Of a stretch of DNA of 64,000 nucleotides, positions 4,169 to 45,748 are shown one piece after another; positions within the stretch are counted from its first letter, which is position 1, and every line of letters starts with the position of its first letter. Under the pieces are notes generated by a model. The model was given only the letters and a program-made list of their open reading frames with translations. It searched no databases and was not told where the DNA came from. The DNA comes from a virus. Its lineage: Duplodnaviria > Caudoviricetes. The position numbers and the translations under genes were made by a program. Location: positions 92,521 to 156,520 of IMG/VR virus record IMGVR_UViG_3300037400_005963, one strand, 5' to 3'.

Positions 4169-5131
4169 ATGAAGCCGAACAAGAGTATGGTTTTTTGTCC
4201 ATCCGCGAGGAAACAGAAAATCAAATTTGATTCCAAAGAAGCGGCCGAACGCTTTATTAGTTGGAATGGAAAAGAAATTCTAAATGAGAATGGTTATGCA
4301 CCCAGAAGAGTTTATTATTGTTCTGCCTGCGGGAGTTGGCACGTAACAAGCTCTTCTAAGAAAGAAAGAAGAAACATAGACCAGGATAGGGAACTTAGTA
4401 ATAGGGTTCTTCTGCCCGGTATATTTAAGTGCAGACCTAATAATAATGTTTTGGTTCCATTATTCTCGAAAATTATAAAATTAGCCGTGAGGGCACTCGA
4501 TCTTGGTTATTTGGATCAAAAAGAAAGGGCCCTTTTTAGGTGTAGGGAATCAATGGGATTAATAGAGAAAACAGAAAGATTGGGAAAAATATTAAGTGTA
4601 AAAAATAAATTTCTGACTAGGTGTAATACATTTCGTCAGATTCTTCAGCAAATAGAAGAAGCCCTTAATGAATCCCCGATCGATAAATCAAGATTAGATG
4701 AATTAATGACCTTGATTTGTTGGACAATTGAGAGATGTGGAAGAAATAATTTTTCATATTCTCCCTACAATACTGGAGGTCATGACTTTAAGGTGACTCC
4801 ATCAAACATAGATGAAGTCTTAAAGAACCTTCAGGAAAAAGAAAAAGAGAAAGAAAGAGAAGAACAACTATCTAAAGAAATTAATATGTTGATCCCAGCC
4901 GCAGAAATGTGTATTAATTATGGGAAATACAATCAAGCTAAATCTAATATTAGTGATTCAATTTCTAAAGCAATGAAATTAAGTGTTCCAGAAAAAAGAA
5001 TACAATATATTTCACGCTGTTTAAAATTAATTATAAAAAAGAATTGGATCCCTAAGGAAGAGCTTGAAGAGCTTTTTAAGGGGACGGAGTATGAATCCTC
5101 ACTGGAGGAGCTCATAAAAAAATATACATAG
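4169..5131 (+). CDS. Hypothetical protein with N-terminal zinc-finger-like domain and helical C-terminus
   Basis: CPSARK...YYCSACGSWHVTS motif. Confidence 0.7.
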   Translation: MKPNKSMVFCPSARKQKIKFDSKEAAERFISWNGKEILNENGYAPRRVYYCSACGSWHVTSSSKKERRNIDQDRELSNRVLLPGIFKCRPNNNVLVPLFSKIIKLAVRALDLGYLDQKERALFRCRESMGLIEKTERLGKILSVKNKFLTRCNTFRQILQQIEEALNESPIDKSRLDELMTLICWTIERCGRNNFSYSPYNTGGHDFKVTPSNIDEVLKNLQEKEKEKEREEQLSKEINMLIPAAEMCINYGKYNQAKSNISDSISKAMKLSVPEKRIQYISRCLKLIIKKNWIPKEELEELFKGTEYESSLEELIKKYT

Positions 5132-8077: not shown

Positions 8078-8459
8078 CGAAGAAAGAGATCTCCTGATAC
8101 AGGATATATGTGGGAGGTTGCCGTATAGTGTAGCAACCGAATATAATGGAGAGTTTTATGAGATCCTTGGTTATGTTCACGGAAAGGTAGTGGTAGCAAA
8201 GCCCTTCTCTTCAATTTCGATGCCAATTGATATCGAATCCTGTCGACCAATTCTTCGAGAGATAAAAGATCTATGTGGAGAAGAAAAAAGAAAGTTTGAT
8301 GACCTAGTACGTTTCGCAGAGAGTAATAAAGATTCTCACGTCATCTTAGATTTCTTAAACTCGATACATGTAGATTATCGAGAGCTTATTCCTATGGGAT
8401 TAGCTAGAAAAATGGATGAAGTTAAATGTCCAGATTGGTATGGGAGGCTCGAGAATTAA
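8070..8459 (+). CDS. Phage hypothetical protein
   Basis: DICGRLPY...RPILR...DYRELIPMGLA motifs. Confidence 0.7.
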   Translation: MTNEERDLLIQDICGRLPYSVATEYNGEFYEILGYVHGKVVVAKPFSSISMPIDIESCRPILREIKDLCGEEKRKFDDLVRFAESNKDSHVILDFLNSIHVDYRELIPMGLARKMDEVKCPDWYGRLEN

Positions 8460-8874
8460 AGGACCGGGAATAAAACATTTCCAGGTAGGAGATTGGATAT
8501 ATTCTGATTCAGATATACCAGTTAGAGTGGAGATAGTAAGAAGAACCTATTTATGTTATTCTCCTGATGGGGGAGTTACTTTTGAATATGTTTTTCAACC
8601 CTCGCCTATTCCAATAACTCCTGAGATTATGAAGAAAAATGGATTTGAATCAAAATATGACGCTACTTCAACTCTCCATGACATGATTTTTAATCTAACT
8701 GATGGTACTTACTTAGATGTAGGAAACGGTGATGTTTTTGCAACGTATTCTGAATATGATTCCGATATGAGTAGGTGGGTTGAAAACGAGTTGCTTTTTT
8801 GTGCTATTTCTTATGTCCATGAACTTCAACATCTTCTTCAATTACTTAAAATAAATAAAGATATTAAAATATGA
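8416..8874 (+). CDS. GD..PIPIT..VHELQH family (paralog 2)
   Basis: FQVGDWI, PIPITPEIMKKNGF, VHELQHLLQL; true start may be slightly downstream. Confidence 0.7.
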   Translation: MKLNVQIGMGGSRIKGPGIKHFQVGDWIYSDSDIPVRVEIVRRTYLCYSPDGGVTFEYVFQPSPIPITPEIMKKNGFESKYDATSTLHDMIFNLTDGTYLDVGNGDVFATYSEYDSDMSRWVENELLFCAISYVHELQHLLQLLKINKDIKI

Positions 8875-43695: not shown

Positions 43696-43884
43696 TTACT
43701 TTACTCCAGTATGCCCATAACCACCGGCGCCTCTAGAAGTCTCCTTTGTCATCTCTTTGAGTTCGATAACTTCGGCGTGTTCTACTTTTGCCATTACGAT
43801 TTGAGCTATTCTATCACCTGGTTCTACTGTCTGTGGAGAGTTTGAAGCATTATAAAGAATTACTCCAACTTCTCCAGTATAATC
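43696..43884 (-). CDS. dut: dUTPase exon 2
   Basis: DYTGEVGVIL (end of motif 3), GDRIAQ (motif 4), RGAGGYGHTG (motif 5). Confidence 0.93.
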   Translation of the reverse strand, partial: DYTGEVGVILYNASNSPQTVEPGDRIAQIVMAKVEHAEVIELKEMTKETSRGAGGYGHTGVK

Positions 43885-45499
43885 CAATGTATACGGAGTT
43901 CTCACTCCGATTTAGACTATTTCTTCTAAGTAAAGCACATAGTCGTTGAAACACAAACTTATATTGTGTCTGCCGATTAAGTTTTAACTCTTCCGGCAAT
44001 TCTCTTTATTTAACGACTCCAATTTTTTATAATCTCTAAATTTCCGTCGTCGTTCTTAACTGCAATAGCTACATTCGGATAGTCCTTGAATGTTTCCATT
44101 GCTTCTGGAATTAATTCGCGTCTTACTGTTATTACGACTTCTTCTGATTTAGCTATAACATATCTCATCATACTTTCTACCTTATCTTTTTTAACTAATT
44201 CAGGTCTTGCCTTTTCGTCTAAGATATTTGTAATATTCATAAAACTTTTTACTTTAGGGGAGCATTTTAATTCCCAGGGTCTAAGTTGCCCTACGATATT
44301 TAATCCCCCTAAAGATCGACATCTAGATAAAGCTACATACATCATGCCATAATCAAAAAAGCCGGTATGAACATTAACTTCATCAAAAGTTTGTCCCTGA
44401 CTTTTATGAATAGTCATTGCATATGCTAATTTACAGGGATATTGGGTATGTTTTCCAATAATCTTCTGTTTTATTTTTTTATTTTTATCTAGTTGATATT
44501 CTACTACATTCCAAGTATAAGGTTCAACGTAAGAATCTTGAGAACTTCCATCAATTCTTACTTGAATACATCCAAGGGAAAAGTTTACCACAGTTCCTAA
44601 AGATCCATTATACCAACGGCCATCATTATTTAACATCATAATTCGGGCCCCTACCGATAAATATAGTATGTCCTCCGCTATCTTATCTATTTCCTTAACT
44701 TTTCCCGACGTAACTGCTTCGAATTCCTCTATTGGATTTCCAAGTTCTTCTAATTTCTTAGAGTTTATTTCAGCTACTTGATTTCGGGTCGGACAGATAT
44801 TAATAGCATTTTGATTTGCTTGCCAAGGCATTACTTCACGTGTTCTTAAGAGATCTAATCCTACTTGATCCCCAACACGTAAATAATCTAAGGCAGTATC
44901 AAATCCAATATCTTCTTGTCTAAAGTTTTCTTGAAGCTCTATTGTCCATATATTTAACTCTTTCCATTCTGGTGCTTCAAATGGATAGCGCTTGTCACCA
45001 TACATTTCATAGAATGTAACGGCGTTTTTTACATTATTAGTATCCAAGATCGGACAGAGTTGATATAAGTCTCCAACTAAGATTACCTGTTTTCTTTTAG
45101 AGGATGTGTTATTTGCTTCTATAATTGATCGAGCAACGTAACCGAATAGATCTACTCGACACATAGAAATCTCATCGATTATAATTAAATCAGATGCCTC
45201 TAATAACTTCCTTGCTTTTTTGTTGGTTACTTTTTCCGTTGGACTAAGAGGTCGTACGGGAGCTTTAAATACACTATGTATTGTAGTTCCCCCTATATTG
45301 TTGGCTGCTAAACCAGTTGGCGCACATATAATGGTCTGTAATCCATATGCTTGAGCACGCCTTATTATTTCGCTAACTACGAATGATTTTCCAGTACCTG
45401 CTTTTCCAGTTAAGAAGAATGATTCCTTCGATTCAAATGCATCTAACGCATATTCCTGTGAAGGTGAAAATTTACTCATTTAATTGTTCTTATTGGTCT
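43885..45499 (-). mobile_element. Group I self-splicing intron in dut, carrying a helicase ORF in L1
   Basis: 5' exon ends in U; intron ends in G; P AAUUGCCGGAA, Q AAUCGGCAG, R UCAACGACUA, S AAGAAAUAGUC; P9 CGGAGU-GAGA-ACUCCG; IGS GGAGUCG pairs with exon CGACUCU; removal restores an in-frame 145 aa dUTPase. Confidence 0.9.
44010..45479 (-). CDS. Pif1/RecD-like SF1B DNA helicase (intron-encoded)
   Basis: GKAGTGKS, CAPTGLAA..IGGTTIHS, IIDEISM, LVGDLYQL, FRQ, NGSLG, QYPCKLAYAMTIHKSQGQT, YVALSR. Confidence 0.92.
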   Translation of the reverse strand: MSKFSPSQEYALDAFESKESFFLTGKAGTGKSFVVSEIIRRAQAYGLQTIICAPTGLAANNIGGTTIHSVFKAPVRPLSPTEKVTNKKARKLLEASDLIIIDEISMCRVDLFGYVARSIIEANNTSSKRKQVILVGDLYQLCPILDTNNVKNAVTFYEMYGDKRYPFEAPEWKELNIWTIELQENFRQEDIGFDTALDYLRVGDQVGLDLLRTREVMPWQANQNAINICPTRNQVAEINSKKLEELGNPIEEFEAVTSGKVKEIDKIAEDILYLSVGARIMMLNNDGRWYNGSLGTVVNFSLGCIQVRIDGSSQDSYVEPYTWNVVEYQLDKNKKIKQKIIGKHTQYPCKLAYAMTIHKSQGQTFDEVNVHTGFFDYGMMYVALSRCRSLGGLNIVGQLRPWELKCSPKVKSFMNITNILDEKARPELVKKDKVESMMRYVIAKSEEVVITVRRELIPEAMETFKDYPNVAIAVKNDDGNLEIIKNWSR

Positions 45500-45748
45500 A
45501 GAGTCGATAGTACCAGGTTCATTTAGTACGATTAATCCTTTCTTCAAAGCCATTCCTGACCTACTTCTTACTTGTACCTCATATCCAATTGAGATATCTA
45601 AATAAATACCGGTTGGGATTAATCTTCTTTCTCCGGGTTCTAGGATAACAACTTCATCTAAGAAAGCTCTAATATCCATCCCGCTACTTCCCACTGTTTT
45701 ATATTCAGGCAGTGGGTTGTTTGATTTATTTACTATTCCTAATTGCAT
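45500..45748 (-). CDS. dut: dUTPase exon 1
   Basis: SSGMDIRA (motif 1), RSRSG (motif 2), PGTIDS (start of motif 3). Confidence 0.93.

Follow-up and report, generated by a model that had tools for sequence, protein, structure and literature searches.

How small can the core of a group I intron become before splicing is lost? This question is raised by an interrupted dUTPase gene in a 64,000-nt stretch of phage DNA (positions 92,521-156,520 of IMG/VR record IMGVR_UViG_3300037400_005963; hereafter the window), in which the locus and all features described below are read on the minus strand. Textbooks place P3-P8 in the conserved group I core and regard the pre-tRNA-Ile intron of Azoarcus sp. BH72, a compact self-splicing intron of subgroup IC3 with about 205 nt, as the practical lower size limit. 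In the window, the dUTPase is interrupted at GTIDS|DYTGE by a group I intron of 1,615 nt (45499..43885), which contains an open reading frame (ORF) for a 489-aa PIF1-like helicase and, downstream of it, non-coding RNA of about 125 nt. Taken together, the analyses described here make it probable that this intron is competent for splicing with a structure reduced to P1, the P3/P7 pseudoknot, P4-P5-P6, and P9, and that the helicase is cargo.

Exon 1 (45500..45748) comprises 83 codons, covers positions 4-73 of the Pfam profile PF00692 and ends with GGT ACT ATC GAC TCT, encoding GTIDS. Exon 2 (43696..43884) opens with GAT TAT ACT GGA GAA, runs from DYTGE to GHTGVK and a stop codon, and covers profile positions 71-129. 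Joining of the exons yields a 145-aa dUTPase that aligns end to end with the intron-less dUTPase P0124, with 110 of 145 residues identical and no gap at the junction. The junction is spanned by dUTPase motif 3, exon 2 starting inside this motif and the rest being encoded in exon 1. The outline of the intron (43885..45499) is based on this restoration of the exons, on a match to the Rfam model RF00028, and on a score of 135.7 bits with the covariance model R1 described below. As expected for group I introns, the six bases GACUCU at the very end of exon 1 (45505-45500) represent the 5' strand of P1 and pair with GGAGUC of the guide over 6 bp, with the final U of the exon forming a terminal U.G pair with the guide, and a terminal G (omega-G, G43885) is found at the 3' splice site. 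In comparison with the related contig L029, the ratio of nonsynonymous to synonymous substitution rates (dN/dS) amounts to 0.11 in exon 1, 0.07 in the helicase, and 0.13 in exon 2, suggesting that all three are under purifying selection.

From the internal guide sequence (IGS, 44020) to omega-G (43885), the core comprises exactly the 136 nt that an earlier note on this DNA had given, with a G+C content of 36%, and it contains P3, P4, P5, P6, P7, and P9. The internal guide (44015..44024), which is kept in L029 and in the related contig L005, starts with AAUU (44024-44021), predicted to form P10 with GAUU of exon 2, and continues directly with GGAGUC (44020-44015), the 3' strand of P1. It is followed by J1/3, read from the sequence as GUUAAA (44009..44014), and P2 is absent because these six bases alone separate the IGS from P3. 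The 5' strand of P3, UAAAG (44004..44008), pairs with CUUUA, which is located together with J7/3 (GUG) at 43931..43938 and was assigned by sequence and covariation. In 35 distinct cores of related introns, P3 is 99.4% paired and all five pairs covary. The longer P3 drawn previously, UAAAGAG/UGCUUUA, stands only in this 5-bp part, as its two extra positions are an A/G mismatch and an unsupported G.U pair. P4 (UGCCGG/UCGGCA) encloses J4/5 (AA), P5 (GAGU-UAAA-ACUU), and J5/4 (AA) at 43971..43998 and is 100% paired in the same 35 cores, with compensatory CG to UA and GC to AU changes. The P6 hairpin (ACACAA-UAUAAGU-UUGUGU, 43951..43969) is kept as a helix with unrelated sequence in L005 and in 24 cores. 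J6/7 (UUCAAC) and the 5' strand of the guanosine-binding helix P7 (GACUAU) are located at 43939..43950, where the motif UUCAACGACUA is near-invariant across the family of miniature introns (mini-introns) to which this intron belongs, and J8/7 (AAGAA) together with the 3' strand of P7 (AUAGUC) at 43915..43925 fits the family and Rfam consensus AAGAUAUAGUC. The P9 hairpin (CGGAGU-GAGA-ACUCCG, 43894..43909) is closed by a GNRA loop and is present as a helix in all 24 cores. It is followed by the 3' tail UAUACAUUG (43885..43893), which ends in omega-G; in all homologues read, the base before exon 2 is likewise G.

In the place of P8, only the five bases CUUAG (43926..43930) are found, as indicated by the RF00028 alignment and by the spacing between both strands of P7. 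Since CUUAG alone separates P3' from J8/7, there is no P8 in the window core. Direct reading of the helices also revealed neither P5abc nor P7.1/7.2. The earlier description of a core without P2, P5abc, and P7.1/7.2 and nearly without P8 is, therefore, borne out by helix reading, by the RF00028 gap, and by the spacing within the family.

At the Rfam gathering score, no match was obtained across the whole window. In E-value mode, RF00028, which has a gathering score of 50 bits, matches 43893-44068 (-) with 34.9 bits and an E-value of 1.1e-6. This shortfall can largely be ascribed to the missing P2 and P8. In the alignment, 59 P8 positions of the model are opposed to 1 nt of the window core, and the "P2" is taken from coding sequence and contains many non-canonical pairs. 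An alternative P2 or P8 formed by helicase-coding sequence, which would have contradicted the minimality claimed earlier, was looked for and none was found. The Rfam alignment and covariation support the P3/P7 pseudoknot, the P4-P6 stack, conserved J4/5, J6/7, and J8/7, and the guanosine site in P7; of the canonical core, the P8 helix is lacking both in the window core and in about 24 distinct relatives. By helix reading and covariation, the element is confirmed as a genuine minimal group I core without P2, P8, and peripheral domains.

The window core has many relatives. The pattern UUCAACGACUA-N(8-19)-AGRWAUAGUCU, which leaves no room for P8, occurs 47 times, in 42 viral loci that are almost all located on contigs of 230-400 kb. 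The covariance model R1 was built from a seed of 11 P8-less cores, including the window core; P7 is left unpaired in R1 because P3 and P7 form a pseudoknot. In 0.5 Mb of pattern-matched loci, R1 gave 190 matches with E<=0.01. The scores of independent members are 45-123 bits, while the 135.7 bits of the window core are those of a seed member; the latter is a full-length P3-P9 match with invariant UUCAACGACUA and AUAGUCU motifs. Among 63 distinct R1 rows, 88.6% of the cells are paired compared to 58.9% after shuffling, and covariation is 0.51 versus <0.1 with slid partners. When P7 was added as a pseudoknot to the 35 best distinct rows, 90.3% were paired compared to 67% after shuffling; covariation in both alignments ranges from 0.44 to 0.51 versus <=0.11 in slid controls. 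For P7 itself, pairing reaches 93.8%, and 2 of the 35 distinct rows show G-C in exchange for A-U. The alignments were fitted to R1, by which pairing is somewhat inflated; slid controls and hand-read examples agree with them. Covariation thus places the window core in an extensive family of miniature introns from jumbo phages of the gut. Most members of this family are ORF-less. Several candidates were rejected during the searches. L006 and L007, obtained with early DNA patterns, are chance matches in coding sequence, and stricter early DNA patterns gave no matches. Most of the metagenome-pattern matches (L011, L013-L015, L018-L020, L022, L024, and L026-L028) represent one near-identical element and were set aside; the only copy scanned, L011, carries large-subunit ribosomal RNA and group II introns, has an organellar look, and has no RF00028 match. 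L017 and L021 have a normal P8 or an insertion of the P7.1/7.2 type.

Within this family, the distance between P7 (GACUA) and P7' (UAGUC) is bimodal. In about 24 distinct cores it amounts to 17-22 nt, with 20 nt in the window, as opposed to 26-40 nt in a second group in which a hairpin of 3-7 bp is visible. In the tightest case read (L079, 18 nt), P3' is followed by the eight bases of J8/7. In addition, there are paralogues that are identical from P3 to P9 except for a clean indel of 18-19 nt corresponding exactly to the P8 hairpin AUGGUAGAGCAAUACCAU, and in contig L078 P8-bearing and P8-less paralogues are located within 1 kb of each other. The hairpin is found in L044 and L078 and missing from L045. 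Judging from these spacings and indels, P8 shrinks and was lost repeatedly in the mini-introns of gut jumbo phages. Such a loss would be possible because P8 is a hairpin stacked on P3, the deletion of which leaves the path from P3' to J8/7 intact.

Covariation across homologous introns had been proposed in the earlier note as a check, and comparison of introns at the same dUTPase site revealed helices kept with changed letters. The nearest relative of the helicase, P0002 (53% identical), is encoded in the syntenic contig L005 between both dUTPase halves. The L005 core keeps every helix of the window core with different letters and has only UAAG in the place of P8. Its P3 (GAAAA/UUUUC) differs from that of the window (UAAAG/CUUUA) by two double changes, P6 is AUACUUU/AAAGUAU, P5 is reduced to GC-GAAA-GU, and P9, drawn by eye, has about 10 bp with a possible GUAA cap. 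Near-identical copies are present in L029 and L030, which originate from other samples. Truncated exon-1 products ending after GTID[SA] revealed two other inserts at the same codon. The first, in L034, is an ORF-less intron of 227 nt with a 10-nt P1 loop, GUAGU in the place of P8, and a P3 of AGAAG/CUUUU; its guide GGUG pairs with CGCU of the exon, both sides being changed at position -3. At L034:437-533 (+), P5 carries a branched extension of about 100 nt, in which GACUGA...UCAGUC surrounds two further hairpins. The second insert contains an HNH_3 ORF and is found in L033, L035, and, according to gene tables only, in the P0174 contigs. It is located at GT[IV]DA|GY (L033:3794-4640 (+) and L035:315-1177 (+)) and closes with about 85-110 nt of conserved non-coding sequence that contain two hairpins; in L033 and L035, it matches neither RF00028 nor R1. 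The exon-1 relatives L003 and L004 were considered as intron carriers and contain no intron, and a blastn search with the locus against the phage collection gave no match.

P8-less cores also occur as complete ORF-less introns in other genes. In L052, a DNA polymerase A gene (Pfam 3.2e-25, profile positions 170-335 of 381) is interrupted after VVHDS by an intron of 140 nt (4893..4754 (-)). The P1 loop of this intron has 8 nt, P2 and P8 are lacking, and the minimum-energy fold of the intron alone gives P1, P4, P6, P7, and P9. This intron is smaller than any natural group I intron known to us. A second P8-less core (L052:4486-4613 (-)) lies about 110 nt downstream. In L040, an ORF-less phase 0 intron of 184 nt (8345-8528) with P1 and P2 but no P8 interrupts a gene with the NADFDGD motif of the RNA polymerase beta-prime subunit, and its core sequence is unchanged in 15 loci. 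The introns of L052, L040, and L034 must be spliced because their host genes look essential, and these three ORF-less examples suggest that P8-less cores can probably function without a cargo protein. At L040:7798-8530 (+), at least three mini-introns about 290 nt apart follow each other back to back just after the NADFDGD exon of the beta-prime gene; similar arrays are found in L054:7109-7955 and L066:3201-5064, with exons of about 150 nt in between.

For the window intron, the following course of splicing is proposed. The guide GGAGUC would pair with the exon end GACUCU across the 1.5-kb P1 loop bearing the helicase gene, and free guanosine bound in P7 would attack after U45500, as in the ordinary group I pathway. 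Exon 1 would then attack after omega-G 43885, aided by P10 (AAUU/GAUU), whereby dUTPase motif 3 would be restored. In the P8-less core, P3' would lead straight into J8/7. The helicase would be translated from unspliced RNA, probably coupled to exon 1, and if the weak AU-rich fold needs help, generic or shared factors may provide it. The chemistry, in vivo splicing of the window copy, and independence of the helicase are inferred from sequence comparison.

Several observations weigh against splicing by such a reduced core. The Rfam score of the window core lies under the curated cut-off, and RF00028 was not reported on L005, L029, or L034 in scans at E<=1 and E<=0.1. The nested native structure is predicted to have only -24 to -29 kcal/mol, P3 alone having +2.0 kcal/mol. 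When the core is folded in isolation, the structure of minimum energy has the guide paired with the 5' strand of P7, which replaces P3/P7. This mispairing comprises 7 bp (AGUCGUU/AACGACU) between 44013-44019 and 43941-43947 (-), the latter belonging to J6/7 and the P7 5' strand, and may possibly act as a folding trap; L005 shows a weaker complementarity, and L034 and L052 show none. The branched P5 extension of L034 may make up for the missing P2 and P8 in this intron. Only one R1 mini-intron is found in the 156 kb of the window phage, for which CheckV estimates 42% completeness. Finally, L029 and L030 have AUAGCC in place of AUAGUC in P7' (window 43916), resulting in an A.C mismatch. This mismatch (L029:4440-4450) adjoins the guanosine-binding pair, and both copies also have a 1-nt insertion in the 3' tail.

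The P7 mismatch in these sister variants, the score under the Rfam threshold, and the missing P8 could also be read as signs that the element is a decaying, non-splicing relic and that the dUTPase is either dead or made as two fragments. This is hardly credible, as the exons are under purifying selection with all dUTPase motifs kept despite saturated synonymous divergence, compensatory changes preserve P3, P6, and P9, and a dUTPase made in two fragments would be divided within motif 3, in which exon 2 starts and which it shares with exon 1.

Another question is whether the core depends on the protein encoded within the intron. The helicase ORF (44010..45479; Pfam PF05970, 1.2e-24) fills the P1 loop. 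In the sequence AAATGA, the start codon ATG of this ORF shares bases with the TGA at which the exon-1 read-through stops, and the same ATGA overlap is found in L005; exon 1 reads through seven codons in the window (45476-45499) and four in L005 (3991-4004) to this TGA. At the other end, the last four helicase codons overlap the P10/P1 guide in the window, with the stop codon inside the guide region, while the stop codon in L005 is located 2 nt before the guide. Walker A and B and the later SF1B motifs are intact in both lineages. The earlier note had proposed that the core may need a protein cofactor, with the in-loop helicase as a candidate maturase or RNA chaperone. In favor of such a function, two lineages retain the helicase within the intron, with purifying selection acting on it, the position of its stop codon on or next to the guide links translation and P1 formation physically, and the mispairing of guide and P7 would be a trap that an unwinding activity could resolve. 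However, equivalent cores without any ORF exist in L034, L052, and L040. Furthermore, the protein belongs to the PIF1/RecD-type SF1B helicases and is neither a DEAD-box RNA chaperone nor a LAGLIDADG maturase. The relatives that come next in similarity (43-46% identity) are encoded by free-standing genes adjoining ParA or CoiA/exonuclease VII genes. The C-terminal 90 residues, the sole potentially intron-specific part, are the least conserved between the window and L005 (34% identity), and a literature search did not reveal PIF1-type helicases tied to group I splicing. A requirement for the helicase is very improbable in light of the ORF-less twins and the free-standing relatives, and the proposal from the earlier note is not supported. 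Since most family members carry no ORF, the helicase is most likely cargo in the P1 loop and not a dedicated folding factor, and the window core is probably independent of it. A search with a helicase protein pattern gave L002 as its sole result, which proved to be a free-standing helicase on a contig without an RF00028 match. The helicase was also not found in G001-G003, relatives of the window phage that represent fragments or an incomplete bin.

Comparison with known introns bears on whether other proteins assist the reduced core. The Azoarcus intron and the window intron have in common minimal helices without a large periphery, a GNRA loop in P9, the P3/P7 pseudoknot, and the P4-P6 stack. 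In contrast, the Azoarcus intron is G+C-rich and has P2 and P8, whereas the window intron has neither of them, a G+C content of only 36%, and 136 nt from guide to omega-G. The compact phage introns L009, L010, and L008 share the P7 and J8/7 signatures GUUCAACGACUA ... GAAGGAAUAGUCU and have 176-193 nt, but they keep P2 and a P8 of 4-5 bp and pass Rfam at 66-69 bits, as opposed to 34.9 bits for the window. In the Azoarcus intron, L2-P8 and L9-P5 tetraloop-receptor contacts lock three domains (PMC2813881). Protein-dependent group I introns are known from yeast bI3 with Mrs1 and a maturase and from Neurospora with CYT-18 and CYT-19 (PMC2813881, PMC3984707). In these systems, the cofactors are a LAGLIDADG maturase, a resolvase-derived protein, a tRNA synthetase, and a DEAD-box protein, and the introns retain P8; they illustrate a weak RNA scaffold held by proteins.

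As the L2-P8 contact is impossible in the window core, generic chaperones or a shared factor could plausibly assist its folding. It might be that the mini-cores need a protein acting in trans, which would be common to the clade or come from the host and would be either an RNA chaperone or a scaffold replacing contacts of the L2-P8 type. This would fit the very AU-rich and weak helices, the fact that the domain-locking contacts of the Azoarcus intron (L2-P8 and L9-P5; PMC2813881) are partly impossible in the window core, and the repeated loss of P8 and P2 in one clade, which is expected if stability is supplied otherwise. It would also fit the study on Jug phages described below, in the available part of which only 37 of 76 introns are confirmed by reads, although this figure is not split by cause there (PMC12880540). 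On the other hand, no candidate protein was identified, the L9-P5 contact may survive given the GNRA sequence of L9 in the window and the one that can be drawn in L005, and P1, P4, P6, P7, and P9 are already formed when the L052 intron of 140 nt is folded to minimum energy. Moreover, the window phage need not share a factor of its intron-rich relatives, because it has only one mini-intron in the part available. A general need for such a protein is, on balance, rather unlikely. The same holds for the more specific idea that a dedicated scaffold protein, encoded or recruited by the phages, allowed the loss of P8 and P2 and that the RNAs of 136-140 nt would be inactive alone, which is a tentative suggestion. 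If true, such a scaffold for mini-cores would be the bacterial-virus counterpart of the mitochondrial CYT-18/Mrs1 ribonucleoproteins. Splicing by the reduced core, with the helicase as cargo, is the reading that we prefer.

Intron-rich jumbo phages of the gut have been described. The Jug phages are jumbo gut phages of Bacteroides and Phocaeicola with genomes of 360-402 kb (PMC12880540, Sci Adv 2026). According to the available part of this article, 2,513 group I introns are distributed over 136 of 139 genomes, the mean per genome being 18.5; the introns have a mean length of about 206 nt and interrupt essential genes, and splicing is supported by metatranscriptome reads in 37 of 76 cases (PMC12880540). 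Counts and lengths are reported there, while secondary structures, loss of P8 or P2, a dUTPase intron, and an in-intron helicase do not appear in that part (PMC12880540). Similar to the Jug phages, the R1-matched loci are found on gut-phage contigs of 230-400 kb. A neighboring gene of the window encoding 494 aa has homologs with 66% identity in G001 and G002, the records of L040 and L066, and with 59% identity in G003, and by this gene the window phage is related to intron-rich jumbo phages. L082 (JAGAYY010000025.1, 376 kb), filed as a metagenome-assembled genome of a "Bacilli bacterium", contains mini-introns and a gene with 59% identity to the 494-aa gene of the window, and the dUTPases P0135 and P0140, encoded on contigs of about 430 kb filed under the same name, are 65-66% identical to that of the window; these contigs have the look of jumbo-phage genomes that were placed in bacterial bins. 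Searches of the literature for naturally P8-less introns, P8 deletions, and helicases in group I introns revealed nothing relevant. As far as could be found, the existence of the family and its splicing in vivo are published, while the P8-less and often P2-less architecture is apparently unpublished. What distinguishes the window copy is its P1 loop, which bears a helicase ORF of 1.5 kb.

Genes split by mini-introns look like fragments in annotation because these introns fall under the Rfam threshold. As very small ribozymes, mini-introns of this kind would be of use in structural studies and in RNA engineering, for example in circular-RNA or trans-splicing designs. With P8 of 7 bp, of 3 bp, or none, and with or without P2, a single jumbo-phage clade provides a graded series down to an intron of 140 nt, by which the part of P8 in folding and catalysis of group I introns becomes directly testable.

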